A stretch of DNA of 64,000 nucleotides from Candidatus Omnitrophota bacterium (GTDB lineage: Bacteria; Omnitrophota; Gorgyraeia; Aquiviventales; Aquiviventaceae): the NCBI GenBank assembly GCA_016180575.1, contig JACPAY010000002.1, forward strand, positions 27,235 to 91,234, written 5' to 3'. Position numbers and translations under genes: made by a program. The notes under the pieces are model-generated. The model ran no database searches, was not told the origin of the DNA, and saw nothing but the letters and a program-made list of their open reading frames with translations. Positions within the stretch are counted from its first letter, which is position 1, and every line of letters starts with the position of its first letter. Below are positions 3,087 through 60,431 of the stretch, one piece after another.

Positions 3087-3152
3087 GGAGTCCGGTTCCC
3101 GCTTTCCCATCGGAGAACTCCAGGAAACCGGGAACCGGACCCGGGACTATCG
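3080..3152 (+). repeat. Family-A palindromic element, copy 1 (caaATGAGGAGTCCGGTTCCC...GGGAACCGGACCCGGGAC)
   Basis: Four copies in the window: 3080, 6765 (short), 19270 and 31410. A nested inverted repeat is present, and copies 1 and 3 differ by a compensatory CCCG/CGGG versus CCCT/AGGG change. Confidence 0.8.
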
Positions 3153-5673: not shown

Positions 5674-6771
5674 ATGAGCCCGGTGCCGTTCCTTGAGGTG
5701 GCGCCGTCCCCCGCGCTCCAGGGGGAGCTGGAGGCGGCGGTGCGCGGGGTCCTCGCGGGCGGGCAGTACATCCTCGGGGAGCGGGTGCGCGCGTTCGAAG
5801 AGGCGCTGGCCGCCCGGTGCGGCTGCCGCTTCGGCGTGGGCGTGAACTCGGGCACCGACGCGCTGGAGCTTGCCCTGCGCGCCTGCGGGATCGGGCCGGG
5901 CGATGAGGTGATCGTGCCCGCGTTCACCTTCATGGCCACCGCGCTCGCGGTGACCTGCGCCGGGGCGACGCCGGTCCTGGCGGATATCGACGAGGCGTCC
6001 TATGGCATCGACGTGGAGGACGCCGCCCGCCGCGTGAGCGCCAAGACGAAAGCCATCATCCCCGTCCACCTCTACGGCCAGCCCTGCGACCTGGACGGGG
6101 TGCTGCGCCTCGCGGAGCGCCGGCGCCTGTGCGTCATCGAGGACTGCGCGCAGGCGATCGGCGCCGCCTACCGCGGACGAGCGGTGGGCGGCTTCGGCGC
6201 GGCCGGGTGCTTCAGCTTCTACCCGACGAAGAACCTGGGCGCGGCCGGAGACGGCGGGGCGGTCGTCACCAACGACCCCGCGATCGCCGAGCGGCTGTCG
6301 CTGCTACGCCAATGCGGCACGCGCGACAAGGTGCGCTATGAGATGGTCGGGCGCAACAGCCGGCTGGACGAGCTGCAGGCGGCCATCCTCCTCGTCAAGC
6401 TCAAGTATCTGGACGGCTGGAATGAGGCCCGGCGGGCGCGGGCGGGGTGGTACCGCGCGGCATTCGAGCAGGAGCGGGTGGAGGGGGTCGGCCTGCCCCA
6501 GGAGCTCGCGGAGCGGCGCCACGTCTACAACGTGTTCACCGTGCGCGTGAGCGAGCGGGACCAGGTGCGGGCAGAGCTGGCGTCGGGGGGCATCGAGACC
6601 ATGGTGTACTATGCGCGCCCGCTGCACCTGGATTCGTTCTACGAGGGCGGCGCGGCCAAGCGGGGAGACCTGCCGCGGGCCGAGCAGGCCGCCCGCGAGG
6701 CGCTGGCGCTGCCGATGTATCCCGGGCTCAGCCGGGAAGCGATCGCGGCGGTCGTGCGCGCCTTCAAATGA
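5674..6771 (+). CDS. DegT/DnrJ/EryC1/StrS family sugar aminotransferase (PLP-dependent)
   Basis: 365 aa with motifs GQYILGERVRAFEE, FYPTKNLGAAGDGGAV and YGQP. Its stop TGA lies inside the short family-A copy. Confidence 0.85.
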   Translation: MSPVPFLEVAPSPALQGELEAAVRGVLAGGQYILGERVRAFEEALAARCGCRFGVGVNSGTDALELALRACGIGPGDEVIVPAFTFMATALAVTCAGATPVLADIDEASYGIDVEDAARRVSAKTKAIIPVHLYGQPCDLDGVLRLAERRRLCVIEDCAQAIGAAYRGRAVGGFGAAGCFSFYPTKNLGAAGDGGAVVTNDPAIAERLSLLRQCGTRDKVRYEMVGRNSRLDELQAAILLVKLKYLDGWNEARRARAGWYRAAFEQERVEGVGLPQELAERRHVYNVFTVRVSERDQVRAELASGGIETMVYYARPLHLDSFYEGGAAKRGDLPRAEQAAREALALPMYPGLSREAIAAVVRAFK

Positions 6772-13035: not shown

Positions 13036-15699
13036 ATGAAACCGCCCGTGTTCATCGTCGGATCGGGCGGGTCCGGCACCACCCTCCTTCGGTTGATGCT
13101 GAACGCGCACCCCCACCTCGCGATCCCGCCGGAATCGAACTTCGTCCCGGAGGTGTGGAAGGCGTTCGAGCGCGCGCAGCCCTGCAGCCCGGACACGCGC
13201 CGGGAAATTCTGCGCTTTCTGGAGGGGTTTCCCGGCTACCATGACTTCCAGCTCGACCGCGCCCGCGTCGAGGCCCGGCTGGATGCGCTCTCCCGGCCCA
13301 TGCTGTCGGACGTGCTCGACGCCATCTACCGCGAATACGCCGAGCGGCACGGCAAGTCGCGGTGGGGCGACAAGACGCCCGGCTACGTCGAGCAGCTCAG
13401 GCGGCTCAACGCGCTCTTTCCGAACTGCCTGGTCATCCACCTGATCCGCGACGGCCGGGATGCGGCGCTCTCCATGCTCGCCCGGGGCGTCGGGCCCCGC
13501 ACCCTCTACGAGGCGGCCAGGGAATGGGTGGGGCGCGTCCGGCGGGGGCGTCGCGACGGCGCGCAGGTGCTGGGGAGCGCCCGCTACCTGGAGGTCTATT
13601 ACGAGCGGCTCGTCGCCGAGCCCCGGGAAACGCTGCAGCGCGTCTGCGCGTTCGTCGGCGAGCCTATGGATGAGGTGCTGCTGGCCTTCTACCGCGACGC
13701 GAGCCGGCACATCCCTGAGGCGGAGCGGCAGAAGCACGCGGCGACGACCCGCCCGGTGACGACCGAGCGGGTGGGGCGGTGGGAGCGGGACATGCGCCTG
13801 CTGGACGTACTGATCGTGCAGGCGGTTGCAGGGTCGCTGCTCGCGGAGCACGGCTACGCGCTGAAGCGCTCGCCGCTGGCCGCGCCGGTCAGCGCCGCGG
13901 TCTGGTGCCGCCTGGCGGCCGAGCGGTTGCTGCGAACGCCCAAAAAGCTCTACAATAGCGTCGCCAAACGGCTCACCAAAAAAAGGGGTCAGACCCCTTT
14001 TGCCGAAAAGGGGTCTGACCCCTCTGAGCGCCAGGCGCTGTCGGTGGTCATCATCGCGCGCAACGAGGAGCGGCGGATCGGCCGGTGCCTTTCGAGCGTG
14101 CAGTGGGCGGATGAGATCATCGTCGTGGACGGGATGAGCGAGGACCGGACGGCCGAGATCTGCCGGCAGATGGGGGCGCGGGTCGTGTCGCACCCCTTTG
14201 AGGGGAGCTTTGCAAAGGAGCGAAATCTCGGGATGGAGCACGCCCGGGGTGAGTGGGTGCTGCAGCTTGACGCCGACGACGTGGTCACGCCGGCGTTCCG
14301 GGAGGCGGTGGCGCGGATGCTGAAAACGCCCCAGCCCCACGAGGCGTTCAAGTTCAGGCGGAAGAGTTTCCTGATGGGGCGATTCATGCGCCACGGCGGC
14401 TGGTACCATGAGCTGCCGAACCTCGTGCGGCGGACGGTCCGCTACGAAGGGCTGGTCCATGAGCGTCCGGTGATCCGAGGCACCATCGGCCGGCTGGACG
14501 CCGACGTGGAACACCATCCTTGCGACGACCTGACATCGTTCCTGGACCGGCACAACCGCTACACGACGCTCAGCGCCCAGGAGCTGGCCGGCCGGGGCGA
14601 GCGGCTGACCGAGGCCCAATGGCGCGCGCGCCTCGTCCGGAAGCCGTGGAAGACGTTCTGGAAGACCTGCGTCAAGAAACAGGGGTTCCGGGAGGGGATG
14701 CACGGCCTGGTGTTCTCGCTCTTCTTTGCCGGTGTGGAGCTCATCAAGTGGGCGAAGGTCTGGGAGCGCTCACTGCGCGCCCCCGGCATGCCGCCGGGGG
14801 ACGAGCCGATGGCCGTCCGCGCCGCGCCGCCGGGCGCCGCCCCGTCGAGGGCAGCCCACCGTGAGACGCTGTCGGTCGTCCTCATGACGAAGAACGAGGA
14901 GGCGCGCCTTTCGGCCTGCCTCGACCAGGTCGTCGGATGGGCGGATGAGATCGTCGTCATCGATGACCTGAGCACCGACCGGACCGTGGAGATCGCCCGG
15001 CGCTATACCGACAAGGTCTTCGCCTTCGCCTTGGAGGACAACCACGACCGGCAGTGGAACCGGGGGATCGAGCGCGCCACCGGCGAATGGGTCCTCCACA
15101 TCGATGCGGACGAGGTGGTGACGCCCGCGCTCCGGGAGGCGATTGACCGGCGGCTCGCGGGGGCGGAGGGCTACGGCGCATTTGAGCTGATGCGGAAAAA
15201 CTTCTTTCTGGGCCGCCCGATGCGCGACGGCGGCTGGTACCACCGGCACCTCGTCCTGTTCCGCCGCCGGCTGTCGCGGTGCGTGGGGCAGGGGATCCAC
15301 GTGCGGCTGCAGGTGGACGGCCGCATCGGGTTCCTGGATGCCGAGATCGAGCACTACCCCTTCAGCTCCCTCGCGCAGTTCGTCGAGCGGCAGAACCACT
15401 ACACCGGCGTCGAGGCCCGCGTCCTCTTGGCGGAGCGCGGCGCGCCGAGCCTGCGGGTCCTCCGCTACCAGCTGACGGTGCGGCCGGTGAAGCTGTTCTG
15501 GAAGAGCTACATCAAGCATCGGGGCCGCCGCGAGGGGGTGCACGGGCTCGTGTTCGCGCTCCTCTACGCGTTCGCCCACGTGATGCTGTGGGCCAAGGTC
15601 TGGCAGCTGAGCCTGTCGGAGGCGCCGCCCGCCTCCGCGGCGGCTGCGCAGCCGAACCAGGAGCCTGAGCTGACGCCATGGCACGCCAGTCCGACGTGA
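13036..15699 (+). CDS. Sulfotransferase domain followed by two tandem WaaE/KdtX-like GT2 domains in one stop-free frame (fusion or unseparated genes)
   Basis: The N-terminus VFIVGSGGSGTTLL is a PAPS-binding P-loop sulfotransferase. LSVVIIARNEERRIG starts at about 14040 and LSVVLMTKNEEARLS at about 14870. An AT-rich hairpin element lies in-frame at the first junction. Confidence 0.55.
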   Translation: MKPPVFIVGSGGSGTTLLRLMLNAHPHLAIPPESNFVPEVWKAFERAQPCSPDTRREILRFLEGFPGYHDFQLDRARVEARLDALSRPMLSDVLDAIYREYAERHGKSRWGDKTPGYVEQLRRLNALFPNCLVIHLIRDGRDAALSMLARGVGPRTLYEAAREWVGRVRRGRRDGAQVLGSARYLEVYYERLVAEPRETLQRVCAFVGEPMDEVLLAFYRDASRHIPEAERQKHAATTRPVTTERVGRWERDMRLLDVLIVQAVAGSLLAEHGYALKRSPLAAPVSAAVWCRLAAERLLRTPKKLYNSVAKRLTKKRGQTPFAEKGSDPSERQALSVVIIARNEERRIGRCLSSVQWADEIIVVDGMSEDRTAEICRQMGARVVSHPFEGSFAKERNLGMEHARGEWVLQLDADDVVTPAFREAVARMLKTPQPHEAFKFRRKSFLMGRFMRHGGWYHELPNLVRRTVRYEGLVHERPVIRGTIGRLDADVEHHPCDDLTSFLDRHNRYTTLSAQELAGRGERLTEAQWRARLVRKPWKTFWKTCVKKQGFREGMHGLVFSLFFAGVELIKWAKVWERSLRAPGMPPGDEPMAVRAAPPGAAPSRAAHRETLSVVLMTKNEEARLSACLDQVVGWADEIVVIDDLSTDRTVEIARRYTDKVFAFALEDNHDRQWNRGIERATGEWVLHIDADEVVTPALREAIDRRLAGAEGYGAFELMRKNFFLGRPMRDGGWYHRHLVLFRRRLSRCVGQGIHVRLQVDGRIGFLDAEIEHYPFSSLAQFVERQNHYTGVEARVLLAERGAPSLRVLRYQLTVRPVKLFWKSYIKHRGRREGVHGLVFALLYAFAHVMLWAKVWQLSLSEAPPASAAAAQPNQEPELTPWHASPT
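13978..14026. repeat. Perfect 17-bp-stem hairpin (AAAAGGGGTCAGACCCCTTTT gccg AAAAGGGGTCTGACCCC) embedded in-frame
   Basis: It has family-C-like architecture around a TCAGA/TCTGA core. The local AT-rich, Lys-rich codons are atypical for this genome. TGA occurs in both alternative frames but not in the coding frame. Confidence 0.6.
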
Positions 15700-18456: not shown

Positions 18457-19554
18457 ATGCCTGAGCCGGTCCGTTTGGGCCTGATCGGCGCCGGGCGGTG
18501 GGGGCGCGTCCACCTCCGGACCCTCCTCTCGCTCGGGGACCGCGTCCGGCTCACGCACCTGTGCACCACCAAGCCGGCTGCGGCCGACCTCTTGCCGTAC
18601 CCGGTGAGCGTCGTGCCCGACTGGCGGCAGCTCCTCCGGGCGCCGTGCGATGCGCTGATCATCGCGACGCCTCCCGCGTACCATCCCGAGATGCTCGAGG
18701 CCTGCCTGGACGCCGCCAAACCGTGCCTGGTGGAGAAGCCGCTGTGCCTCGACGTCGCCACTGCCGAGCGGCTCCACGAGCGCATCCGGGCCTCAGGCGT
18801 CCCGGTGCTGGTCAACCACACCCACCTCTTCGCGCCGGCGTATCGCGCCCTGAAGCGGGCGGTGGCGGAGGGCGGGGAGCCGATCCGGATCCTCCTCTCG
18901 GAGGGGATGGGCTTCGGCCCGTTCCGGACCCACACCCCCACCCTCTGGGATTGGGGTCCGCATGACGTGAGCCTCTGCCTCGACCTCCTGGGGGAATCCC
19001 CGCGCGGCGTGGAGGCGCTGGGCGGCCCGCGCAGCCCGGACGGCGACCCGGAGCTGGTCAGCCTGCGCCTCGAGTTTCCGGGGGGCGCCTGCGCCTGGAT
19101 CCAGACGGGGCGGCTCGCCGCCAAGAAGCGGCGGAGCCTGGCGGTCATCACCAACAGCCGGCTCTATCTCCTCGACGACCTGGCGGCCGAGCCGCTGACG
19201 GTCGCTCCCATCCAGTTCTCAGAACGGTACACCGATGGCGTGCCGGAGCCGCCGGCCCCTGTGCCGCTACAAATGAGGAGTCCGGTTCCCTCTTTCCCTT
19301 CGGAACACTCGGGGAAACAGGGAACCGGACCCGGGACTGGCATGGCGACGATGGCCCATGTCCTGACCTATTTCCTGGACGGGCTGGCCGGAGGCGACCG
19401 CAGCCAGTTCGGGACCGGGCTTGCGCTGGAGGTGACCCGCGTGCTGGCCGCCTGCGAGCGGGCGCGCATCTCCCGGTATCAGATACCGGTTGAAGGAAGC
19501 CGCTCTTTCAGGCCGGTATCTGATACCGGAGAGGGACATGGCGCCGTTCCGTGA
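18457..19554 (+). CDS. Gfo/Idh/MocA-family oxidoreductase carrying an in-frame family-A element
   Basis: N-terminus RLGLIGAGRWGRVHL, and DALIIATPPAYH. The C-terminal third contains the repeat translated as QMRSPVPSFPSEHSGKQGTGPGT. Confidence 0.7.
   Translation: MPEPVRLGLIGAGRWGRVHLRTLLSLGDRVRLTHLCTTKPAAADLLPYPVSVVPDWRQLLRAPCDALIIATPPAYHPEMLEACLDAAKPCLVEKPLCLDVATAERLHERIRASGVPVLVNHTHLFAPAYRALKRAVAEGGEPIRILLSEGMGFGPFRTHTPTLWDWGPHDVSLCLDLLGESPRGVEALGGPRSPDGDPELVSLRLEFPGGACAWIQTGRLAAKKRRSLAVITNSRLYLLDDLAAEPLTVAPIQFSERYTDGVPEPPAPVPLQMRSPVPSFPSEHSGKQGTGPGTGMATMAHVLTYFLDGLAGGDRSQFGTGLALEVTRVLAACERARISRYQIPVEGSRSFRPVSDTGEGHGAVP
19270..19340 (+). repeat. Family-A element copy 3 (inside a CDS, in-frame)
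   Basis: caaatgaggagtccggttccctctttcccttcggaacactcggggaaacagggaaccggacccgggactgg. Confidence 0.8.
19473..19528. repeat. Family-C REPIN-like element (CCGGTATCAGATACCGG ... CCGGTATCTGATACCGG)
   Basis: Two self-palindromic 17-mers in inverted orientation separated by a 22-nt spacer. It overlaps the 3' end of the oxidoreductase and the 5' region of the methyltransferase. Confidence 0.8.
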
Positions 19555-27220: not shown

Positions 27221-28134
27221 TGTTTTGCGGCACGGCGGCCTTTGCGGTGCCGAGCCTGGAACGGCTCCTCGCCGCGGGGCACACGATCGCGCGGTGCATC
27301 ACGCAGCCCGACCGGCCCCGGGGCCGGGGGCTCGCCCGTGAACCCTCCCCGGTGAAAGCGGCGGCGCTGCGCCTCCGCGTGCCGCTCGCCCAGCCGGAGC
27401 GCCTTTCGGCGGCGCCGCTGGAGGGCCTGGGCGCGGATGTCGGGGTCGTGGCGGCGTACGGGCAGCTGATTCCCCGGGACGTCCTGGCCTTGAGCCCGCA
27501 TGGGATGTTGGGCGTGCATCCGTCGCTCCTGCCGAAATACCGGGGTGCCGCGCCAGTCGCCTGGGCGCTCTTACACGGCGACACGGTGACCGGGGTCACG
27601 ATTTTCCGCCTCAACGAGCGCCTGGACGCCGGGGACATCCTGCTGCAGCGGCGTATGGAGGTCGAGCCGCGCGAGGACGCCCAGGCGCTCACGAGCCGGT
27701 TGGCGGAGGCGGGGGCCGAGGCGCTGGTGGAGGCGCTGGAGGCGGTGGCGGAGGGCCGAGCGCGCGCCACGCCGCAGGATGAGGCGCAGGCCACCCTGGC
27801 GCCGAAGCTGGCCAAGGCGCAGGGCCGGATTGACTGGCGCGCGCCGGCCGAGACGATTGAGCGGCTCGTGCGCGCGACCGTGCCGTGGCCTGGCGCCTCC
27901 ACCGCGTGGCGGGGCGTCTCCTTGAGGGTGTGGCGCGCCGCAGTCGGGGCGGGCGATTCCGCCTCCGCCCCGCCGGGGACGGTCGCGGCGGCGGGGCAGG
28001 GCATCATTCGTGTGGCGGCCGGGCGAGGGTGCGTGGATCTCCTCGAGGTGCAGCCGGCGGGCCGACGCCGGATGGGTGTTGCGGAGTTCCTCGCCGGCCA
28101 TCGCATGACTGTGGGAGAGCGGTTTGAGACATGA
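27211..28134 (+). CDS. fmt: Methionyl-tRNA formyltransferase
   Basis: N-terminus MRVMFCGTAAFAVPSL, and GVHPSLLPKYRGAAP. Overlaps def by 10 nt. Confidence 0.85.
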   Translation: MRVMFCGTAAFAVPSLERLLAAGHTIARCITQPDRPRGRGLAREPSPVKAAALRLRVPLAQPERLSAAPLEGLGADVGVVAAYGQLIPRDVLALSPHGMLGVHPSLLPKYRGAAPVAWALLHGDTVTGVTIFRLNERLDAGDILLQRRMEVEPREDAQALTSRLAEAGAEALVEALEAVAEGRARATPQDEAQATLAPKLAKAQGRIDWRAPAETIERLVRATVPWPGASTAWRGVSLRVWRAAVGAGDSASAPPGTVAAAGQGIIRVAAGRGCVDLLEVQPAGRRRMGVAEFLAGHRMTVGERFET

Positions 28135-28200
28135 GACAGGAGACAAGTGCAAGCCACACCTGTCCCATGTCCCATGTCCCATGTCCCATGTCTCAGCTTT
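28127..28200. repeat. Family-D palindromic heptamer array (GGACATG x4 and inverse) upstream of GalT-like gene 1
   Basis: gagacatgagacaggagacaagtg...cacctgtcccatgtcccatgtcccatgtcccatgtctc. The fmt stop lies in the left arm. Confidence 0.75.
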
Positions 28201-28204
28201 TCAC

Positions 28205-29287
28205 ATGCCTGAGCTGCGCAAGGATCCCTTGATCGGCCGGTGGGTGATCATCGCCACCGAGCGGGCCAAGCGGCCGGTGGACTTCATCGCGTTCCATGAG
28301 GAGCCGGCGCTGCAGGCCGACTGCCCGTTCTGCGCCGGAAACGAGGCGCGCACGCCCAAGGAGATCCTCGTCCTCCGCGGCGACGGGCCCGGCGCCCCAA
28401 ACGGCTGGCAGGTCCGGGTCGTCCCCAGCATCAACCCGGTGCTGCGCATCGAGGGGGCGCTCAACCGGCGCGGCAAGGGGATGTACGACATGATGGACGG
28501 CATCGGCGCGCATGAGATCGTGGTCGAGAGCCCGCAGCACATCGCCAATGCCGCGGACCTGCCGGTGGAACAGGTCCACGCCGCGCTCCAGGCGTCGATC
28601 GCGCGCATCGCGGACCTGGAGCGCGACCCCCGGTTCCGCTATGCGCTGTGGTTCAAGAACTACGGGTCGGTCGCCGGGGCCGGCCGGATCGAGCACACCC
28701 GGTCCCAGCTGATCGCCACCCCCGTGACCCCGCTGCGGGTCAAGGAGGAGCTGGTCGGCGCGCGGCGCTACTACGAGGACAAGGAGCGCTGCCTCATCTG
28801 CGACCTGCTCTTCCAGGAGCGGGAGGCCAAGCTCCGTGTGGTCATCGACTCGACCCACATCATCGCGCTGTGCCCCTTCGCGTCCCGGTTCCCCTTCGAG
28901 CTCTGGCTCCTCCCCAAACGGCACAACTGCGACTTCGCGAAGATGCAGCCGGAGGAGCTGAGCGACCTCGCGGCGGTCCTCAAGCAGGTCCTCAGCCGGC
29001 TCAAGACGGTGCTGGACGATCCGCCCTACAACGCCCTCCTGCACACCGCGCCCTTCCGCCGGCAGCGCGGGAAGGTCGGCCACTGGAAGACGATCGAGGA
29101 GGACTACCACTGGCACATCGAGCTGATCCCCCGCCTCACGCGGGTGGCGGGCTTTGAGTGGGGCAGCGGGTTCTACATCAACCCCACCCCGCCGGAGGAG
29201 TCGGCGAAGTACCTGCGGGAAGCCGGGGTCGACGTCGGCGAACATGTTGGGACAGGAGACAGGGGACAGGAGACAGGGGACAGGTAA
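28205..29287 (+). CDS. Galactose-1-phosphate uridylyltransferase-like (GalT/HIT superfamily) paralog 1, with HPH replaced by HTR
   Basis: CPFCAGNE zinc motif and FKNYGSVAGAGRIEHTRSQ. The position of the nucleophilic His is Arg (codons 28694-28702). The last approximately 14 aa (GTGDRGQETGDR) are encoded by the family-D array. Confidence 0.7.
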   Translation: MPELRKDPLIGRWVIIATERAKRPVDFIAFHEEPALQADCPFCAGNEARTPKEILVLRGDGPGAPNGWQVRVVPSINPVLRIEGALNRRGKGMYDMMDGIGAHEIVVESPQHIANAADLPVEQVHAALQASIARIADLERDPRFRYALWFKNYGSVAGAGRIEHTRSQLIATPVTPLRVKEELVGARRYYEDKERCLICDLLFQEREAKLRVVIDSTHIIALCPFASRFPFELWLLPKRHNCDFAKMQPEELSDLAAVLKQVLSRLKTVLDDPPYNALLHTAPFRRQRGKVGHWKTIEEDYHWHIELIPRLTRVAGFEWGSGFYINPTPPEESAKYLREAGVDVGEHVGTGDRGQETGDR

Positions 29288-29325
29288 TATGTCTCACGTC
29301 TCTTGTCTCCTGTCTCAGCAATTCC
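29237..29325. repeat. Family-D palindromic heptamer array (GACAGG[A/G] x5 and inverse) upstream of GalT-like gene 2
   Basis: gggacaggagacaggggacaggagacaggggacagg taatat gtctcacgtctcttgtctcctgtctc. It is followed by the conserved CTCAG-N12-CTGAG hairpin with the ATG in its loop. Confidence 0.75.
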
Positions 29326-30330: not shown

Positions 30331-32661
<2,331 letters not shown>

Positions 32662-37315: not shown

Positions 37316-38114
37316 AGACCTCTCGGTGACCTACCACGGGCGCGGCGCTGACGTCCGCGCCGTCGACCGGGTCAGCCTGTCGGTAGAGCCCGGCGAGGTG
37401 GTGGCGGTCGTCGGAGAGTCCGGCTCGGGGAAGTCGACGCTCGCGCTCTCGCTCACCCGGCTCTTGCCGTCTCCGCCGGCTGAGCTGCGCGCCCGGCGCG
37501 TGCGCTTCGAGGGGGTGGACCTCCTGACCGCCTCGGAGCCGCAGCTCCAGCGCCTGCGGGGCGGCCGGATCGCCTACGTGTTCCAGGATCCCGCCACGTC
37601 GCTCAACCCGGTCCTGACCATCGGGGAGCAGCTCCGGGAGCCCATCGAGCGGCACACGGACCGGCGCGGGCATGACGCGGACACCGTGGCGCTGGACTGG
37701 CTCTCGCGCGTCGGCATCCCGTCCGCGCAGCGCCGCCTCGGCGCCTACCCGCACGAGTTCTCCGGCGGGATGCAGCAGCGCGTCATGATCGCGATGGCGA
37801 TGGCCTCGCACCCGCAGCTCCTCATCGCCGATGAGCCGACCTCGGCGCTCGACGTGACGGTCCAGGTCCAGATCCTGCGCCTGCTGCGCGACCTTCAGCG
37901 CCGGCTGGGCCTCTCGCTGCTCCTCATCTCCCACGACCTGCTCGTCGTGCAGCGCCTGGCGCATCGCACCGTGGTGCTCTCGCGCGGCGCCGTGGTGGAA
38001 TCCGGGCCGACCGAGCAGGTCCTGCAGCGGCCGGCGCACCCCTACACGAAGAGCCTGCTCGAGGCGCGCGCCTCGATGACCTGGCGGAGAGGGGAAGGCG
38101 GGCCGGATGGCTGA
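37296..38114 (+). CDS. ABC peptide transporter ATP-binding protein (OppD/DppD-like)
   Basis: Walker A GESGSGKST and signature LSGGMQQR. Confidence 0.85.
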   Translation: MALLDVEDLSVTYHGRGADVRAVDRVSLSVEPGEVVAVVGESGSGKSTLALSLTRLLPSPPAELRARRVRFEGVDLLTASEPQLQRLRGGRIAYVFQDPATSLNPVLTIGEQLREPIERHTDRRGHDADTVALDWLSRVGIPSAQRRLGAYPHEFSGGMQQRVMIAMAMASHPQLLIADEPTSALDVTVQVQILRLLRDLQRRLGLSLLLISHDLLVVQRLAHRTVVLSRGAVVESGPTEQVLQRPAHPYTKSLLEARASMTWRRGEGGPDG

Positions 38115-38922
38115 GCCGGTCCTGGCGGTCCGGTCGCTGACGAAATCGTTCCCCATCCACTGGGGATGGCTGCGCCGAGAGACCAGCCGCATCGAGGCGG
38201 TGCGGGAGGTGACCTGGTCGCTGGCCAAGGGGGAAACGCTCGGCCTGGTGGGGGAATCCGGGTGCGGCAAGTCCACGCTGGCGAAGCTGTGCGTGGGGCT
38301 GCTGGCGCCGACCGCCGGCGAGGTCCTGGTCGCGGGGGCGCGCCTCGCCGGGCTGCGGGGCGGAGCAGCCCGCGCGGCGCGCCGGATGATCCAGATGGTC
38401 TTTCAGGACCCCACCGGCAGCCTCAACCCGCGGATGACGGTTGGCGAGATGCTCGATGAGCCGCTGGTCATCCACCGCCTCGCGGCCGGCCGGGCCGCGC
38501 GCCGCCGGCGGGTGGCGGAGCTGCTGGAGACGGTGCAGCTGCCGGCAGGCTTCGCCCGCCGCCTGCCGAGGGAGCTGAGCGGGGGAGAGCGCCAGCGCGT
38601 CGGCATCGCCCGGGCGCTCGCCGTCGAGCCGGCGGCGCTGATCTTGGACGAGCCGGTGGCATCGCTCGATGTGTCGGTGGGCGCCAAGATCCTGGAGCTG
38701 CTGCGCGCGCTGCGCGCGCGCCTTGGCATGGCGGTGCTGTTCATCTCGCATGACCTCGGCATGGTGGCCTCGCTCTGCGAGCGGATGGCGGTCATGCGCG
38801 AGGGGCGCCTGGTGGAGCTTGCCCCGACCCAGCAGCTCCTGGCCCATCCGGCGCACCCCTATACCCAGCTCCTCATCCGCTCATCCGCGCTCGACCTCGA
38901 CGCCGACACGTCCCGTATCTGA
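38107..38922 (+). CDS. ABC peptide transporter ATP-binding protein (OppF/DppF-like)
   Basis: Walker A GESGCGKST and signature LSGGERQR. The stop TGA is inside the family-C arm. Confidence 0.85.
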   Translation: MAEPVLAVRSLTKSFPIHWGWLRRETSRIEAVREVTWSLAKGETLGLVGESGCGKSTLAKLCVGLLAPTAGEVLVAGARLAGLRGGAARAARRMIQMVFQDPTGSLNPRMTVGEMLDEPLVIHRLAAGRAARRRRVAELLETVQLPAGFARRLPRELSGGERQRVGIARALAVEPAALILDEPVASLDVSVGAKILELLRALRARLGMAVLFISHDLGMVASLCERMAVMREGRLVELAPTQQLLAHPAHPYTQLLIRSSALDLDADTSRI

Positions 38923-38971
38923 TACGGGTACGGGGCCTATGTTATAATGAAGCCCCGTATCAGATACGGGG
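38912..38971. repeat. Family-C REPIN-like element (CCCGTATCTGATACGGG ... CCCCGTATCAGATACGGGG) with an internal TTATAAT hairpin
   Basis: The left arm contains the oppF stop codon. The spacer carries TATAAT 26 nt upstream of the marC ATG. Confidence 0.8.
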
Positions 38972-38974
38972 ACG

Positions 38975-39553
38975 ATGGAACAGTTCTGGCATGCGTTCAT
39001 CCCCCTGTTCGTGGCGTTTGACGCCGTGGGGCTGCTGCCGCTCTTCTGGGGGCTGGCCCACCGTCTGAGGCCCAGCGAGCGCAGAAGGGCGGTGACCGAG
39101 GCGGCCGCCACCGCGCTCCTCGTGGGGCTGGGGTTTCTCCTCGTCAGCCGCTTCGTCTTCGCGCTGATGGGGCTCGAGCTCGCCGACGTCATGGTCGCCG
39201 GCGGGGCCATCCTCATCGTCCTCTCGCTGCGGGACCTGCTGCTCCCGGGCCCGCCGCCCCAGGAGACGCTCCAGAGCCCCGGGGTGGTGCCGCTGGGGGT
39301 CCCGCTGCTCGCGGGGCCGGCGGTCCTGACGACGCTGCTGCTGGTCAGGGACCGGCACGGCTGGGTGGTCACCCTTGCCGCGCTCCTCGCGAACATGGCG
39401 GTGGTGTGGATCGTGCTGCGCGGCGCCGAGGGGCTGATGCGGCGGCTCGGCCAGGACGGGGCGCAGGTCATCTCGAAGATTGCGAGCCTGATCCTCACCG
39501 CGTACGGGGTCATGCTGATCCGGCACGGCCTGGCCGTGTTCGTGACGAGATAG
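38975..39553 (+). CDS. MarC family integral membrane protein
   Basis: MEQFWHAFIPLFVAFDAVGLLPLF is a typical MarC N-terminus. Confidence 0.8.
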   Translation: MEQFWHAFIPLFVAFDAVGLLPLFWGLAHRLRPSERRRAVTEAAATALLVGLGFLLVSRFVFALMGLELADVMVAGGAILIVLSLRDLLLPGPPPQETLQSPGVVPLGVPLLAGPAVLTTLLLVRDRHGWVVTLAALLANMAVVWIVLRGAEGLMRRLGQDGAQVISKIASLILTAYGVMLIRHGLAVFVTR

Positions 39554-45997: not shown

Positions 45998-47112
45998 AGA
46001 GACGCTATAACGTCGCCGTCGTCGGCGCCACGGGCGCCGTCGGCACGGAGATGCTCCGGGTGCTTGCGGAGCGCCGGTTCCCCGTGAACCGGCTCCGGGT
46101 CCTGGCGTCCGCCCGCTCGGCGGGCCGGCGCGTGCCGTTCAACGGCGCCACGCACGCGGTGGAGGAACTGCGCGGGCGGTCATTCGACGGGATCGACTTA
46201 GCGCTCTTCAGCGCCGGGGCGACGCGGAGCCTCGAGTTTGCGCCCGAGGCGGTCCGGCGGGGCGCGGTGGTCGTCGACAACTCCAGCGCCTTCCGCATGG
46301 CGCCGAACGTGCCGCTCATCGTGCCCGAGGTCAACCCCGAGGCGCTGTCGGGTCACCGCGGGCTCATCGCCAACCCCAACTGCTCCACCATCATCATGCT
46401 GGTGCCATTGGCCCCGCTGCACCGGGCAGCAGCCCTGCGGCGCATCGTCGTGGCGACCTACCAGTCGGTGTCGGGCGCGGGCGCCAAAGCCATGTGGCAA
46501 CTCCTCAACGAGACAAAAAAGGCCCTGAGACATTACGAGGCTAGGGGCTCAGGGCTAGGGGCTCAGGGCAAAAGCCCCAAAGGGTTTTCAATGAAGCAAC
46601 TCCTTGCTCGGCCCATAGCCCATAGCCCACAGCCCAGGGTCTTGCCCGCGCAGATCGCCTTCAACGTCATCCCGCAGGTGGACGTCTTCCTCGACAACCG
46701 CTCCACCAGGGAAGAGTTGAAGATGGTGAACGAGACCCGCAAGATCCTCGGCGAACCGCGCCTGCCGGTCTCCGCCACGTGCGTCCGCGTGCCGGTCTTC
46801 GTCTCGCATTCGGAGGCGGTGTGGATCGAGACCGAGCGGCCGCTCTCACGCGCGCGGGCGGCCGCGCTCCTGCGCCGCGCGCCGGGGGTGAAGCTGATCG
46901 ACGACCCCGGCCGGGGGGCCTACCCGCTGCCGATCCAGGCAGCCGGGCAGGACGACGTGCTCGTCGGCCGCCTCCGGCGGGATGAGTCGGTGGCGCACGG
47001 GCTCGCCCTCTGGATCAGCGGCGATAACCTCCGCAAAGGGGCGGCGACCAACGCCGTCCAGATCGCCGAGCTACTTACCGGTATCAGATACCGAACTCGC
47101 TTTGGTATCTGA
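45994..47112 (+). CDS. asd: Aspartate-semialdehyde dehydrogenase, with an in-frame repeat insertion and a repeat-encoded C-terminus
   Basis: Motifs VAVVGATGAVG and NPNCSTI (active-site Cys). IAFNVIPQVD. Stop inside the family-C arm. Confidence 0.85.
   Translation: MKRRYNVAVVGATGAVGTEMLRVLAERRFPVNRLRVLASARSAGRRVPFNGATHAVEELRGRSFDGIDLALFSAGATRSLEFAPEAVRRGAVVVDNSSAFRMAPNVPLIVPEVNPEALSGHRGLIANPNCSTIIMLVPLAPLHRAAALRRIVVATYQSVSGAGAKAMWQLLNETKKALRHYEARGSGLGAQGKSPKGFSMKQLLARPIAHSPQPRVLPAQIAFNVIPQVDVFLDNRSTREELKMVNETRKILGEPRLPVSATCVRVPVFVSHSEAVWIETERPLSRARAAALLRRAPGVKLIDDPGRGAYPLPIQAAGQDDVLVGRLRRDESVAHGLALWISGDNLRKGAATNAVQIAELLTGIRYRTRFGI
46537..46640. repeat. Palindromic heptamer-array element inserted in-frame in asd (GGGGCTCAGGGCTAGGGGCTCAGGGC ... 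GCCCATAGCCCATAGCCCACAGCCC)
   Basis: The arms are imperfect reverse complements built from the 7-mer GGGCT[C/A][A/G]. The centre is AT-richer. It adds about 25 aa (ARGSGLGAQGKSPKGFSMKQLLARPIAHSPQPR) between conserved Asd blocks. Confidence 0.65.
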
Positions 47113-47118
47113 TACCGG
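47078..47118. repeat. Family-C REPIN-like element (CCGGTATCAGATACC ... GGTATCTGATACCGG)
   Basis: It encodes the last 12 aa and the stop of asd (TGIRYRTRFGI*). Confidence 0.8.
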
Positions 47119-47888: not shown

Positions 47889-49435
47889 TGGCGAAGCCGA
47901 CCGCGGCTGCCGCCATCCACGCCGGCGGCCACGAGCGATGGGGCTCAAAGCTGGGCGTCATCCTCGCGGTGGCCGGCAGCGCGGTGGGCCTTGGCAACTT
48001 CCTCAGGTTCCCGGTCCAGGCGGCGCAGAACGGCGGCGGCGCCTTCATGATCCCGTACTTCCTCGCCCTCATCTTCCTGGGGATCCCGCTGGCGGTGGTG
48101 GAGTGGACGATCGGCCGCCACGGCGGCATGCACGGGCACAACACCGCCGCCGGCGCCTTCAGCGCGATGTGGCCCTGGCGCGGGGCCAAGTACCTGGGGC
48201 TGCTGGGGGTGTTCGGCCCGTGGGTGATCTTCCTCTATTACACCTACATCGAGAGCTGGACCCTGGCCTTCAGCTACTTTTCCTTGGCGGGCCTCCTGGG
48301 ACAGGCCAGGGAACAGGCCGCGATGACCGGGTTCCTCCAGGCGTTCCAGGGTCTTTCGCCGAACGCCATCTTCCCGCATATCGGCACTGCCTACTTCTTC
48401 TTCCTCCTGACGTTCGCCGTGAACCTCCTCGTCGTCGCCGGGGGGATCCAGAAGGGCATCGAGTTCGTTTCCAAGGTGTTCCTGCCGCTGCTCTTTCTCT
48501 TCGCGTTCGTGCTGGCCGTCCGTGTCTTCTGGATCGGCGCGCCGGACCCGGCCCGGCCGGACTGGCACGTGGTTAACGGCCTCGGCTACCTTTGGAACCC
48601 GAACCTGTCCGTCTTGGGCAGCTCCCGCGTGTGGCTGGCGGCGGCCGGGCAGGTCCTCTTCACCCTGAGCGTCGGCATCGGCGCGATCGTGACCTATGCG
48701 AGCTACCTCAGGCGGGATGACGACGTCGCGCTCTCCTCGCTGACCGCCGTCGGCACCAACGAGTTCGCGGAGGTGATCCTGGGCGGCTGCCTGGTCATCC
48801 CGGCCGCCTTCGCGTTCTTCGGCCCGGAGCAACTGGCCGCCATCGCCAAGGGCGGCGCCTTCAACCTGGGGTTCGTCACCATGCCGCTCGTGCTGGGGCA
48901 GCTCTCCTGGGGCCAGCTGTTCGGGTGCCTCTGGTTCCTCCTCCTCTTCCTCGCCGGCATCACCTCATCAATCTCGCTCGCCCAGCCGGTCATCGCCTTC
49001 TTCCAGAACGTCTACGGCTGGCGGCGGGCCAGGGCGGTGGCGGTCTTCGGCGCGGTGAGCTTCGTGCTGAGCCAGCCGGCGATCCTCTGGCTCGGCCGGG
49101 GCGCGCTGGATGAGATGGATTTCTGGGGCGGGACGGTGTGCCTGGTCGTCTTCGGCCTGCTGGAGGTGCTGCTCTTTGCCTGGGTCTTCGGGATGGAGCG
49201 GGGCTGGCGCGAGATCCACCACAGCTCGGACATCCGCCTGCCAGGGTTCTTCCGGTGGGTCATCGCCTACGCCACCCCGGCCTACCTGCTCTTCGTCCTC
49301 GGCTTCTGGCTCTATGACAACGCGAAGACCACCATCAGCATGGCCGGCGTGGATGCCGCGAATCGGCCCTACGTCATCGGGGTCCGATGGATGCTGATCG
49401 GCCTTCTCCTGGTCATGGCGCTGACGATGCGCTGA
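47888..49435 (+). CDS. Sodium:neurotransmitter symporter (SNF) family transporter
   Basis: N-terminus RWGSKLGVILAVAGSAVGLGNFLRFP, with 11-12 TM segments. TGATG overlap with truA. Confidence 0.8.
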   Translation: MAKPTAAAAIHAGGHERWGSKLGVILAVAGSAVGLGNFLRFPVQAAQNGGGAFMIPYFLALIFLGIPLAVVEWTIGRHGGMHGHNTAAGAFSAMWPWRGAKYLGLLGVFGPWVIFLYYTYIESWTLAFSYFSLAGLLGQAREQAAMTGFLQAFQGLSPNAIFPHIGTAYFFFLLTFAVNLLVVAGGIQKGIEFVSKVFLPLLFLFAFVLAVRVFWIGAPDPARPDWHVVNGLGYLWNPNLSVLGSSRVWLAAAGQVLFTLSVGIGAIVTYASYLRRDDDVALSSLTAVGTNEFAEVILGGCLVIPAAFAFFGPEQLAAIAKGGAFNLGFVTMPLVLGQLSWGQLFGCLWFLLLFLAGITSSISLAQPVIAFFQNVYGWRRARAVAVFGAVSFVLSQPAILWLGRGALDEMDFWGGTVCLVVFGLLEVLLFAWVFGMERGWREIHHSSDIRLPGFFRWVIAYATPAYLLFVLGFWLYDNAKTTISMAGVDAANRPYVIGVRWMLIGLLLVMALTMR

Positions 49436-49450: not shown

Positions 49451-49518
49451 ATGGTGTCAGACACCATATTCCTGACCGGGGCAGCGAGGCGACCGAGCTG
49501 AACATGGTGTCTGACGGC
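49451..49518. repeat. Family-C variant arms (ATGGTGTCAGACACCAT ... CATGGTGTCTGAC)
   Basis: GTGTCAGACAC is a covarying version of GGTATCAGATACC around the same TCAGA/TCTGA core. Confidence 0.7.
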
Positions 49519-49656: not shown

Positions 49657-49676
49657 GCAGTGTCTGACACCATATT
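49657..49676. repeat. Family-C variant arm (AGCAGTGTCTGACACCATAT)
   Basis: Third GTGTCTGACAC arm of the cluster. Family-B copy 3 sits between arms. Confidence 0.6.
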
Positions 49677-49679
49677 TAA

Positions 49680-49790
49680 ATGACGCGGGCTGGGTGGGTG
49701 TTCCTGGTGGTGTCGTGGGGCGCGATCCTGGCGCTGTGCGCCTTCTGCTTCAGTCGAGTCTTTCGGCACCACCGGCAGCGACGGTCATGA
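49680..49790 (+). CDS. Possible small single-TM membrane peptide (36 aa, MTRAGWVFLVVSWGAILALCAFCFSRVFRHHRQRRS)
   Basis: ATG directly after an AT-rich catatttaa box. One hydrophobic helix followed by a basic tail. No SD, so it would be leaderless. Confidence 0.25.
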   Translation: MTRAGWVFLVVSWGAILALCAFCFSRVFRHHRQRRS

Positions 49791-49802
49791 GCACGCGTGG
49801 CG

Positions 49803-49972
49803 GGTCCCGCTAGCTGCGGGTCCTGGCAGGATGGTGTCTCGCCGGACCGCTCGGCCCGCCCCACCGTGGCGGGCCTTCGCTCGGCTTCAGGGGTTCGCTC
49901 GTCCCTCCGGTTCACCGAGGGGACACCATGGCCGCTCACCCCTTCAGACGTCCGGCTCGACATCCATCCTGC
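49803..49972 (+). ncRNA. Candidate structured RNA or structured repeat, family E copy 2
   Basis: Homologous to 5359..5523. The covarying helices are GGCCCGCC/GGCGGGCC (versus GGCGTGCC/GGCACGCC), CCCTC/GAGGG (versus CCCGCC/GGCGGG) and GGCAGGATGG/CCATCCTGCC (versus GGCAGGGTGG/CCACCCTGCC). Confidence 0.45.
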
Positions 49973-50127
49973 CACCCGCAGCCAACAAGGACCCATGCCC
50001 GCCCGCACGACCGCGAGCCCCGGCATCGCAAGTCCCCTGTCACCCGCCAACCTTTTTCGCTTGACAGCGGAACCTGGAGGCTCCATAATTTCCAACAAAT
50101 GGTTGGTAAGGCATTGGGGGGGGAAGG

Positions 50128-50586
50128 TTGATGAGAGAGACGCAGCCGGTTGCGGTGAATGTGCCCCTAGAGCTTCAAAAGACCCTAGCGGAGCTTTTGA
50201 AGCTTGAGAAGGCAATGGATATCCTCGGCAAGCGGATTGCCGATCGCCGATGCTACGTTGATGCGCTCAAGCGAGTGCAGAACCATTTCAACGATCATCT
50301 GGAAACGTCCGAGTCCTCCAACCCCTCCTCGTCAAGCTCATCCTGCTCTTCCTCCAGCTCCATTCCAATTAGTGAATCAGCGGCACCTGTCACTTCCGCT
50401 TGTCTTGAGATTTTCAGGCAAGAACACGGCCCCCTCAGGTTGAGCTTTATTGAGAAACGACTTCGCGAACGGGGAGTTCGAGTGGGGCGAAACACGGCAT
50501 GGATGGCGATCAAGCGACTTGAGCAGAGGCACCGCATCCGTAAACGTAGCCGCGGTGTCTACGAGTTGATGAATGGTTCGAGCTAG
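50128..50586 (+). CDS. Hypothetical protein (152 aa) in a low-GC patch, with coiled-coil N-terminus, Ser-rich linker and basic C-terminal domain
   Basis: Its GC is markedly lower than the genome. GGGGGGAAGG lies upstream of the ATG. No recognisable family. Confidence 0.4.
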   Translation: MMRETQPVAVNVPLELQKTLAELLKLEKAMDILGKRIADRRCYVDALKRVQNHFNDHLETSESSNPSSSSSSCSSSSSIPISESAAPVTSACLEIFRQEHGPLRLSFIEKRLRERGVRVGRNTAWMAIKRLEQRHRIRKRSRGVYELMNGSS

Positions 50587-50724
50587 GGAATAAAAACAGG
50601 GCCAGTAGCTTCCACTACTGGCCCCGCAAAACTGATCGGTGCCCCGACTAGGAGACACGCGATCTGCGCTTTCGCGCTTTAATTTATTCTAAACCAATTG
50701 GAACTCCTGTCAAGCACTTTATGC

Positions 50725-50815
50725 GGAGGGGTGGGCGAGTGGTCGAAGCCAGCTGACTTAAAATCAGCCAATCGTCTGGGAGGACGGTTCACGAGTTCAA
50801 ATCTCGTCCCCTCCG
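50725..50815 (+). tRNA. tRNA-Leu (anticodon TAA), class II with a long variable arm
   Basis: Acceptor GGAGGGG/CCCCTCC, U8, 3-bp D stem, anticodon stem GCTGA/TCAGC with loop CTTAAAA, 22-nt variable arm, T arm ACGAG-TTCAAAT-CTCGT. No CCA is encoded. Confidence 0.85.
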
Positions 50816-51407
50816 CACACTCTTTAAGCTAAGTTGTCAAGGACCTATTAGCTTAATTCGGAGAAAGTACCCGCATAATTGTGCCTGTCCGGTCAAGTAA
50901 ATGTCAAATAAATTAATAAATTGAGCCGTTGATGAACCAGGAAGGCGACGGCAAGTGTGGGAGTAGTTAACCGTGAGGCGTGCATGGCGAAGAACGAGCG
51001 CACATCCCGGCGTGTCGCGTCGATTGCCAGCCGCATCCTTCGCGACCCTTGGGCAACTAGGGCGCAGAAGAGTGCGGCGGGTTCGGCGCTGACTCAGATT
51101 CGGGATCGCAAGCGGCGCGGACGGTAAGGCTCACTTAGCCGAGTGAGACGGACAATTGCGCAGGCTGGTATGGTAATCTGCCCTATCACCTGCGCATTGT
51201 CCTTTGTAGTATTCAAGCTCTGAGCCAGCGTCTTGTAGTCCTTCTGATTATCTGTCAGGAACCCGACGGAGAAACGCCGAGCTGGGAAAAAGGGTAGAAT
51301 ACCTTCCAGATGTTCCCAGCCAGGATCAGTCCTCTTGCTGTCTAGCCATTCGACTAGGACGAGCGGCGGCGGGTAGTGTCTCATTTTGAACGGTAGGAGG
51401 TCATAAG

Positions 51408-51521
51408 ATGCCTGAGTGTCAGCATGAGTGGGTGCAGGTGGTTGAAGACAAGGCGATTGGCCTGAAGCACATTGAGGTCTGCCGTTTGTGCGGCGTCAAG
51501 AAGTCCGAGAAGCAAACTTGA
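51408..51521 (+). CDS. Possible small zinc-ribbon protein (37 aa, MPECQHEWVQVVEDKAIGLKHIEVCRLCGVKKSEKQT)
   Basis: A perfect AGGAGG lies 8 nt upstream of the ATG. C4/H...CxxC arrangement. Located in the low-GC patch. Confidence 0.4.
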   Translation: MPECQHEWVQVVEDKAIGLKHIEVCRLCGVKKSEKQT

Positions 51522-59013: not shown

Positions 59014-60417
59014 ATGGCACGCAAACTGTGGGGTGGACGGTTCATGAAGCGGACGGACCCGCTCGTGGAGCGGTACACCTCGAGCATCGGGGTGGATTAC
59101 CGGCTTGCCCGGTACGATGTCCTGGGCTCCATCGCGCATGCCCAGATGCTGGGCAAGTGCCGCATCATCCGGGCGGCGGAGAGCCGCCGGCTCGTCGCCG
59201 GCCTCACGCGCATCCTCCGCGCCGTCGAGGCGGGGCGATGGCGGCCTGACCCCCGGGCGGAGGACATCCACACGCAGATCCAGCAGTGGCTCACGCGGCT
59301 CGTCGGCCCGGCGGCCCGCACGCTCCACACCGCGCGCAGCCGCAACGACCAGGTGGCGCTGGACCTGCGGCTCTACTGCCGCGAGGCGGTGGCGGAGCTG
59401 TCGGCGCGCATCCGGGAGCTGCAGCGCTCGCTCGTCCGGATCGCCGCCGCGCACCGCCGGGCGGTGATCCCCGGCTACACGCACCTGCAGCGGGCCCAGC
59501 CGGTGCTGCTCGCGCACCACCTGCTCGCCTATGTGGAGATGCTGGAGCGCGACCAGGAACGGCTGCGGGACGCCCGCAAGCGGATCGACGTCCTGCCGCT
59601 GGGCGCCGGCGCGCTCGCGGGGACGTCGCTTCCCATCGACCGCCGCGACGTGGCCAAGCGGCTCGGCTTTCCCCGGGTGGCCGAGAACAGCATCGATGCG
59701 GTGTCCGACCGGGACTTCGCGCTGGAGCTGCTGTCGGCGCTCGCGATCCTGGGCGTGCACCTCTCCCGCCTGGCCGAGGATGGCGTCCTGTGGACCACGG
59801 AGGAGTTCGGCATCCTCGCCCTGGACGACGCGGTGGCGACCGGCTCGAGCCTCATGCCGCAGAAGAAGAACCCCGACGTCTTCGAGCTGGTCCGCGGCCA
59901 GGCCGGGATCGTCATCGGGGAGCTGACGGCGCTTTTGGCGGTGCTGAAGGGGTTGCCCCTGTCGTATAATCGAGATCTGCAGTGGGACAAGCGGTGCGTG
60001 TTCGGCGCCGTGGAGATCAGCCTTGACGCGCTGGCGGCGCTGGCGCTCGTGCTTCGGCACGCCCAGGTGCGGACGGCGCGCCTGCCGGCGCTCCTCGTCT
60101 CCGACGCGCTCTGCGCGACGGACCTGGCCGAGCATCTGGTCGAGCGGGGCGTGGCGTTCGCCGACGCGCATGGGGTCGTCGGCCGGGTCGTGTCCTACGC
60201 CGAGCAGCGGGGCAAGCGGCTCCGGGACCTGTCCCTCGATGAGCTGCGCCGGTTCTCCGGCCGGTTCGACCGCCAGGCGCTGGCCCGGCTCGACCCGGAG
60301 CGCTCCGTCGAGCGCAAGCGCAGCCTGGGCAGCACGAGCCCTGCGGAGGTCGCGCGGGCGCTGGCCCGCTGGCAGCGGCAGCTTGGTATCAGATACCAAT
60401 CGGGGCACGGTATCTGA
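59014..60417 (+). CDS. argH: Argininosuccinate lyase
   Basis: Motifs KLWGGRF and GSSLMPQKKNPD. The last 11 aa and the stop are encoded by a family-C element. Confidence 0.9.
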   Translation: MARKLWGGRFMKRTDPLVERYTSSIGVDYRLARYDVLGSIAHAQMLGKCRIIRAAESRRLVAGLTRILRAVEAGRWRPDPRAEDIHTQIQQWLTRLVGPAARTLHTARSRNDQVALDLRLYCREAVAELSARIRELQRSLVRIAAAHRRAVIPGYTHLQRAQPVLLAHHLLAYVEMLERDQERLRDARKRIDVLPLGAGALAGTSLPIDRRDVAKRLGFPRVAENSIDAVSDRDFALELLSALAILGVHLSRLAEDGVLWTTEEFGILALDDAVATGSSLMPQKKNPDVFELVRGQAGIVIGELTALLAVLKGLPLSYNRDLQWDKRCVFGAVEISLDALAALALVLRHAQVRTARLPALLVSDALCATDLAEHLVERGVAFADAHGVVGRVVSYAEQRGKRLRDLSLDELRRFSGRFDRQALARLDPERSVERKRSLGSTSPAEVARALARWQRQLGIRYQSGHGI

Positions 60418-60420
60418 TAC
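60384..60420. repeat. Family-C REPIN-like element (TTGGTATCAGATACCAA ... GGTATCTGATAC)
   Basis: It encodes LGIRYQSGHGI* of argH. Confidence 0.8.
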
Positions 60421-60431
60421 GCTGAGGTGAG

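Follow-up and report, generated by a model that had tools for sequence, protein, structure and literature searches.

A 64 kb stretch of a Candidatus Omnitrophota metagenome-assembled genome (MAG), hereafter referred to as the window, contained six inverted doublets of short palindromic arms (D1–D6) and one single arm. The window had a GC content of ~71%, and almost all of its genes were located on the forward strand. These doublets are likely REPIN-like elements, composed of two inverted repetitive extragenic palindromic (REP) units and a spacer, which were most likely copied by a dedicated RAYT (REP-associated tyrosine transposase) and have persisted at gene junctions. They make up a REP/REPIN family that is new, lacks a GTAG tag, and occurs in a new lineage; the kind of system itself is not new. 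Both the inverted-doublet anatomy and three RAYT genes flanked by the same arms in other contigs (P0121, P0123, and P0147) supported this reading, which an earlier prediction made for the same DNA (hereafter the original prediction) had already suggested. From sequence comparisons, we infer that a RAYT is present now, or was formerly present, in this genome and mobilised the doublets.

The arms were strongly over-represented. The sequence GGTATCAGATACC had 15 matches in the window when up to two mismatches were allowed, against 0.32 expected, and none of the 100 shuffles reached this number. A scan of every TCAGA and TCTGA pentamer in the window, in which the flanks were not assumed, placed 12 of the 34 pentamers in perfect palindromic flanks of 3–8 bp, compared with ~0.5 expected. 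The resulting 12 palindromic arms made up the six doublets and shared one anatomy, a short palindrome centred on an invariant TCAGA or TCTGA, and the stems around this common core were of different types (GGTA/TACC, CGTA/TACG, GGGG/CCCC, and GGTG/CACC). The stems co-varied, as in GTATC/GATAC, GGGTC/GACCC, and GTGTC/GACAC; in the 12-arm alignment, six of the seven stem pairs had changed on both sides, and the observed covariation score was reached by none of 500 shuffles. While the three innermost stem pairs belonged to the arm selection criterion, the outer pairs did not, and these co-varied too. The compensatory changes agree with the statement of the original prediction that the arm variants keep both their palindromy and the TCAGA/TCTGA core.

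The D4 doublet, located between the asd and truA genes, had the structure that had been described for it, namely a palindromic arm, a spacer, and the inverse arm, and its sequence was CCGGTATCAGATACCGAA ctcgc TTTGGTATCTGATACCGG, with 18-nt arms that were 94% complementary. Each of the six doublets folded into one long hairpin, whether taken as RNA or as DNA, with RNA folding energies ranging from -22 to -47 kcal/mol and z-scores from -3.2 to -9.1 (Table 1). The spacing of the doublets ranged from 5 to 28 nt, including one class with a fixed 24-bp centre-to-centre spacing. An 11-nt spacing recurred in D4, D6, L021, L026, and L084, with unrelated spacer sequences between near-perfect arms. Neither GTAG nor CTAC was found adjoining the arms, and a CGTC-like tag was observed only at D3, where CGTC stood directly outside both arms, and at some of the copies in relatives. 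When the window was compared with Rfam at gathering thresholds, one tRNA was the only match, and nothing matched at the elements.

Related doublets and a candidate transposase partner

Doublets in other genomes were searched for using the pattern GTATCWGATAC-N7-37-GTATCWGATAC, which accepted A or T at the centre of each arm, with one genome per species. The high-GC MAGs carrying such doublets included JACQRD01 and MHGT01 (labelled Omnitrophota), CAYJRJ01, CAYJWN01, and SBAZ01 (Planctomycetales), and DASWKB01 (unclassified). In many cases, their doublets were part of a longer hairpin of ~60 nt (ACGTGC-GGTATCAGATACC-ATTTTC...GAAAAT-GGTATCTGATACC-GCACGT), and the elements of these relatives were mostly located 5–35 nt past gene 3′ ends. 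Three copies in CAYJRJ01 (L037, L044, and L091) had the same arms and the same 25-nt spacer between unrelated flanks, which indicates that the whole element was copied to new sites. In DASWKB01, the arms also occurred as spacer-less head-to-tail runs (GTATCAGATACGTATCTGATACGTATCAGATAC...; L002, 5563–5610 and 6255–6302; L017, 2620–2663), an arrangement not found in the window.

Among the 25 doublets of the high-GC genomes, 22 had the TCAGA arm before the TCTGA arm (A..T), two had the opposite order (T..A), and one was T..T. Such a strong bias is not expected from hairpin formation alone; thus, the doublet has an orientation, as would two REPs in one preferred inverted arrangement. No direct repeats were found at the doublet flanks, and the bases outside the arms continued the inverted repeat (CC...GG and ACGTGC...GCACGT). 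The lack of a target-site duplication fits HUH/Y1 transposition and speaks against a miniature inverted-repeat element of a DDE transposon.

A candidate for the transposase was found on contig L002 of DASWKB01, where two arm clusters ~650 bp apart bracketed an open reading frame (ORF) of 195 aa (5699–6286; P0121) with GTATCAGATAC/GTATCTGATAC arms on both sides. P0121 matched the Pfam family Y1_Tnp, and its sole match in the PDB was the E. coli TnpA_REP (4ER8). The scores of P0121, P0123, and P0147 against NCBIfam NF047646 (‘REP-associated tyrosine transposase’) were 98.6, 97.7, and 88 bits, respectively, where the cutoff is 80 bits, and the three proteins were mutually 60–64% identical. The genes of P0123 and P0147 (contigs L102/L103 and L104/L105, respectively), like that of P0121, had GGTATCAGATACC/GGTATCTGATACC doublets both upstream and at the 3′ end of the gene itself, and GGGTCAGACCC-type arms were located near the P0123 and P0147 loci. 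The stop codons of these RAYT genes lay inside arms. In their 31 close homologues, the motifs NHxHL and YxHxNPV were invariant; 21 of these homologues ended in Ile, as the codons ATC TGA predict, and many of the tails were arm translations (VSDT, IRYQ, and ISDI). Among the matches listed, 80 RAYT loci of lower similarity (39–48% identity) all lacked GTATC-type arms, and, taken with the presence of such arms at the three loci, this indicates that the arm association is specific to one RAYT subclade. The three loci (L002, L102, and L104) had no clear neighbours in common. The surroundings of P0147 (L104/L105, 2897–4601) included several arm clusters, a RAYT-like fragment (2994–3140), and a HicA/HicB toxin-antitoxin pair between arms.

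Several points weigh against the REPIN/RAYT reading. The original prediction had named RAYT transposases as the enzymes that mobilise such doublets, and the three arm-flanked genes were found in other contigs, but a tblastn search with 120 RAYT homologues detected no RAYT in the 64-kb window. The common repeat is the sole link between the RAYT contigs and Omnitrophota, and co-occurrence alone ties the GGGGTCAGACCCC- and GGTGTCAGACACC-type arms to the same RAYT; these two types may be separate subfamilies. The spacers of the window doublets all differed in sequence, giving no sign of recent transposition inside the window; the window copies are either old, with the arms kept by selection, or products of a process that copied the spacer unfaithfully. 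Finally, the GTAG tag that is classical for RAYT-associated REPs was absent.

Gene ends overlapped by the doublets

All copies in the window were located at junctions of co-directional genes. Five copies lay within operons; in these, the preceding ORF extended at least into the left arm, and the start codon of the following gene came 4–14 nt past the right arm. The asd, argH, and oppF-like genes had no earlier in-frame stop and ended at the TGA of TCTGA, and their translations matched exactly the tails given in the original prediction. The asd product continued from ...AELL into TGIRYRTRFGI (tail ...LTGIRYRTRFGI, then the stop), and it was 100% identical, tail included, to the NCBI protein MBI2104173.1 (372 aa). 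Among 119 asd homologues, conservation stopped at ...QIAELL and was followed by 1–16 unrelated, variable residues. The argH product ended in ...LGIRYQSGHGI, where the C-terminus of E. coli ArgH aligned opposite ...RQLG and the residues IRYQSGHGI were extra. The oppF-like protein was not truncated, and its gene took no more than the final three codons and the stop codon from D3 (tail ...TSRI); a marC-family gene followed D3, with its start at 38975.

The elements do provide tails and stop codons, although REPs have been described with this effect before. The claim that the elements supply tails and stops stood for these three genes but not as a regular property, since the ORFs read through D1 and D2, and D5 started 16 nt past the stop of an SNF-family transporter gene (stop at 49433–49435). 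The stop of the GFO/IDH/MocA-family ORF that ran through D2 overlapped the start region of the next gene (ATG at 19538). The TGA ended the ORF in three of the five overlapped copies, which is not meaningfully different from the one-third expected from the frame alone; an active supply of stops was therefore rejected. Stop-codon supply is probably a frame-dependent accident, that is, a passive effect of the element position and not a fixed property.

The asd-truA junction carried repeats in other genomes as well. The same arm family was present there in L101 (asd 70% identical), and a different palindromic repeat in L100 (asd 81% identical). Many Omnitrophota asd proteins (within P0002–P0120) had recurrent non-homologous tails, including GSRL, KWQSGH/KWRGGK, PFPVTRHR/SHVTRHK, PISDI, and DRYQIPSSR. 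These tails look repeat-encoded, and several palindromic families seem to have landed at this junction, on repeated occasions.

A gene fusion was associated with D1, whose arms were of the GGGGTCAGACCCC type. It was located within an 887-aa ORF, where it encoded the linker peptide KRGQTPFAEKGSDPSER between a sulfotransferase domain and two GT2 domains (Table 1). The nearest relatives of this ORF (66–84% identity) were stand-alone glycosyltransferases of 502–565 aa, which covered only its C-terminal 60%. The closest relative, P0247 (83%), started with MPERQRLSVVVIARNEE... where the window read ...GSDPSERQALSVVIIARNEE; its N-terminus, MPERQRLSVV..., corresponded to ...DPSERQALSVV... in the window. 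According to the gene coordinates of the P0247 contig, a sulfotransferase gene (318 aa) and a GT2 gene (531 aa) overlap there by 8 nt, leaving no room for the 43-bp element. At the window junction, D1 was present, and the stop and the ATG were both gone. This comparison of the two loci shows D1 to be an insertion that removed the stop and start codons and fused the sulfotransferase gene to the GT2 gene. Neither the fusion nor a stand-alone GT2 of this MAG was found at 100% identity in the protein collection, and the source record may list the locus as a pseudogene.

Table 1. Positions of the doublets, the single arm, and the overlapped genes in the window, with predicted hairpin energies (kcal/mol) and z-scores.
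Feature	Position	Strand	Energy	z-score	Description
D1	13981–14023		-36.2	-7.6	Stem variant (GGGGTCAGACCCC type); AAAAGGGGTCAGACCCCTTTT / AAAAGGGGTCTGACCCCT, 18/18 complementary
D2	19473–19529		-46.7	-9.1	CCGGTATCAGATACCGG, 23-nt spacer, CCGGTATCTGATACCGG; 17/17 complementary; upstream ORF reads through in frame
D3	38912–38971				Rare T..A order; CCCGTATCTGATACGGG, 25-nt spacer, CCCCGTATCAGATACGGGG; arms 100% complementary
D4	47078–47118		-30.2	-8.3	Arm GGTATCAGATACC, 11-nt spacer, arm GGTATCTGATACC; asd-truA junction; truA ATG at 47124
D5	49451–49513		-32.3	-3.2	Stem variant (GGTGTCAGACACC type); CCATGGTGTCAGACACCAT, then degenerate second arm CATGGTGTCTGAC; intergenic
D6	60383–60421		-22.1	-4.0	TTGGTATCAGATACCAA, 11 nt between 13-mers, GGTATCTGATACG (outer base changed); argH-lysA junction; lysA ATG at 60432
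Single arm AGTGTCTGACACCATAT	49658–49676				GACACCATAT common to first arm of D5; at edge of low-GC island
887-aa fused ORF	13036–15699	+			Sulfotransferase domain (aa 4–254), D1-encoded linker (~aa 317–330), two GT2 domains
GFO/IDH/MocA-family oxidoreductase ORF	18457–19554	+			Last ~27 residues (SRYQIPVEGSRSFRPVSDTGEGHGAVP) run through D2
oppF/dppF-like ABC ATPase	38107–38922	+			(S)RI and TGA (38920–38922) within left arm of D3
asd, aspartate-semialdehyde dehydrogenase, 372 aa	45994–47112	+			D4 encodes last ~10 codons (GIRYRTRFGI) and TGA (47110–47112)
argH, argininosuccinate lyase	59014–60417	+			D6 encodes IRYQSGHGI and TGA (60415–60417); Lyase_1 and ASL_C2 domains

Mechanism and alternative explanations

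Under the REPIN/RAYT reading, the REP unit is a hairpin with a variable stem of 4–8 bp and an invariant loop, which is TCAGA on one strand and TCTGA on the opposite one. The units have a fixed inverted arrangement, in which each strand reads TCAGA arm, spacer, and TCTGA arm. The doublet would be copied on single-stranded DNA by the RAYT, an HUH/Y1 single-copy IS200-like transposase, presumably of the subclade that is flanked by exactly these arms in the related contigs. Copies would survive only at the gene junctions of this gene-dense genome, and their overlap with gene 3′ ends would arise because intergenic space is almost absent. The frame would then decide the outcome, which may be a stop at the TGA of TCTGA, as in the asd, argH, and oppF-like genes, or read-through, which gave the tail of the GFO-family ORF and the sulfotransferase-GT2 fusion. 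A transcribed doublet would form a very stable mRNA hairpin without a U-tract, to which any role can be assigned only tentatively.

A bolder version of this reading can be formulated, which we regard as rather unlikely. Here, the elements would form a REPIN-RAYT lineage distinct from the classical systems of Group 2/3 with their GTAG tags, and its loop would have an opal codon built in. Along with two or more further palindromic families of this very compact genome, the copies would alter gene termini systematically, generating stops, starts, C- and N-terminal peptides, and fusions. In-frame retention at operon junctions would be selected, for example through translational coupling by ribosomes that melt the hairpin, and not merely tolerated. 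The layout of the arms and the downstream starts would fit such a ribosome-dependent unmasking of the next start.

A role of this kind is also the core of a first alternative, in which the doublets are host-selected RNA structures at operon junctions and mobility is irrelevant. The structures might protect against 3′ exonucleases, serve as processing sites, or mediate translational coupling, where melting of the hairpin by a ribosome that terminates inside it would expose the ribosome-binding site of the next gene. The high stability of the predicted hairpins, the location of every copy at a co-directional gene junction, and the arrangement of the five copies within operons relative to the upstream ORF and the next start are consistent with this explanation, as are the near-perfect arms around spacers of equal length (11 nt) but different sequence, which suggest constraint on the arms. 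However, it leaves unexplained why the arms surround one RAYT subclade and no other RAYTs, why whole elements occur at unrelated loci, and why the A..T polarity exists. We thus consider it improbable as the sole explanation, although an RNA-structure role is compatible with REPIN-like elements as a secondary, exapted function.

Alternatively, the arms could be double-stranded binding sites, such as paired palindromic operators of a dimeric regulator or of a nucleoid-associated protein. Each arm is indeed a perfect palindrome of 13–17 bp with a conserved centre, and one class has a fixed 24-bp centre-to-centre spacing. However, the stem positions co-vary and are not conserved, which indicates that structure rather than sequence is recognised; moreover, the variable spacing, the location at gene 3′ ends and inside ORFs rather than at promoters, and the specific tie to an HUH transposase acting on single-stranded hairpins make this explanation very improbable. 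The view that the elements are ordinary intrinsic terminators or chance palindromes past an earlier stop, with the reading into them being a frame error, could draw on the hairpins with GC-rich flanks at gene ends and on D5, which does follow a stop, but it was refuted, and is given almost no weight, by the lack of a T-run after any window copy and of any terminator-like call around D4 and D5, by the asd, argH, and oppF-like genes that lack an earlier in-frame stop, by the identical asd end in the NCBI annotation, and by the large excess of the motif over chance.

Known systems and other repeats

The doublets resembled the REPIN-RAYT systems of Pseudomonas fluorescens, the bacterial interspersed mosaic elements of E. 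coli, and the corresponding repeats of Neisseria in several respects. In all of these, two inverted palindromic REP units and a spacer form one long hairpin, over-represented copies are found at gene 3′ ends without target-site duplication, and these repeats also surround the gene of the cognate HUH/Y1 transposase (a REPtron), which was here the case in other contigs. In contrast to those systems, the unit in the window was a small perfect palindrome with an invariant TCAGA loop and no GTAG head, many copies overlapped coding sequence, and the spacers were mostly not conserved; furthermore, the host is an uncultivated Omnitrophota bacterium and not a member of the Proteobacteria, and the window contained no RAYT.

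Similar effects on gene ends have been described for REPs tagged with GTAG or CGTC (Di Nocera et al. 2013, PMC3733652). These REPs are located near or overlapping ORF ends, with dimers near 3′ ends, and their termini provide stop codons (TAG) and C-terminal residues (PMC3733652). The same study described dimers located entirely within ORFs, where they encode 20–30 residues, dimer spacers alike in length and different in sequence, and tyrosine transposase (‘TIRYT’) genes flanked by self-complementary repeats, whereas CGTC REPs, with stems of 8–9 bp, were reported without a transposase (PMC3733652). Unlike in those repeats, the stop codon in the window came from the loop (TGA in TCTGA) and not from a GTAG tag, the lineage was different, and the copies were more extensively embedded in coding ends. 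In comparison with the CGTC REPs, the stems were shorter and the arms flanked a RAYT. Membership in the CGTC superfamily was not adopted, given the inconsistent tag and the shorter stems.

Rickettsia palindromic elements (RPEs) and intragenic REPs are likewise palindromes translated in frame, comparable to D1, D2, and the asd and argH tails, but RPE-1 is ~100–150 bp long and has no known mobilising transposase, whereas the present elements were mostly located at the extreme 3′ end of genes, with one gene fusion. Mycobacterial interspersed repetitive units are repeats in operon junctions, with frames that overlap the upstream stop and the downstream start. They are direct tandem repeats of 46–101 bp, in contrast to the inverted hairpin doublets described here, and are not known to be associated with RAYTs. 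A literature search for the motif string returned primers and unrelated sequences only and did not return it as a repeat, and a search combining Omnitrophota with palindromic elements returned nothing relevant.

The family extends the REPIN/RAYT element type to Omnitrophota-like uncultivated bacteria, and finders keyed to known REP/REPIN families may miss repeats that lack the GTAG tag. Its effects are visible at the level of genes, including tails on the housekeeping enzymes asd and argH and one fusion that removed a stop and a start. When such MAGs are annotated, extended C-termini and unusual fusions can be products of repeats and should not be taken for real domain novelty. The RAYT subclade and the stem-TCAGA-stem hairpin form a defined candidate enzyme-substrate pair for biochemistry. 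Two of the new points are the most useful, namely the fusion of two genes at D1 and the way in which one RAYT subclade pairs cleanly with these arms.

Likenesses to the core were also observed in more distant bacteria. In Bacteroides and Parabacteroides loci (L012, L034, L043, L069, L083, L094, and others), tandem arrays with a 23-bp period had units containing GTATCTGATAC or GTATCAGATAC (e.g., GGGTATCTGATACTGTTGACGAAG), and a search of the 8-kb loci detected no RAYT. In Saprospiraceae, GTATCWGATAC core doublets with a 7-nt spacer were found in L079 (1648–2617, 33% GC) and ~12 other loci; those in L079 flanked a RAYT-like gene with 26% identity to P0121 and a score of 49.7 bits, which is under the NF047646 cutoff. 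This likeness may reflect either convergence or an old shared REP core.

The window also contained other repeats. A second palindromic family (CAAATGAGGAGTCCGGTTCCCGCTTTCC...GGAAACCGGGAACCGGACCCGGGACT) was present at 3077–3150, 31407–31480, and 19267–19340. At two junctions, its ATGA provided the upstream TGA stop together with the downstream ATG, and the start of the downstream protein included ...RKPGTGP; the third copy was in frame inside the GFO/IDH/MocA-family ORF. A third inverted-repeat family, in which GAGACA/GGGACA units faced TGTCTC/TGTCCC, was located at two gene junctions (28125–28195 and 29245–29320), and a GTGACA-type element resembling it filled the asd-truA junction of L100 (4060–4190; asd 81% identical). 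Finally, an island of low GC content (49700–51520, ~58% compared with 71%), with D5 and the single arm near 49660 at its border, carried a tRNA-Leu(TAA) (50725–50816) and small ORFs without a Pfam or NCBIfam match, and it may be the remnant of an integrated element.

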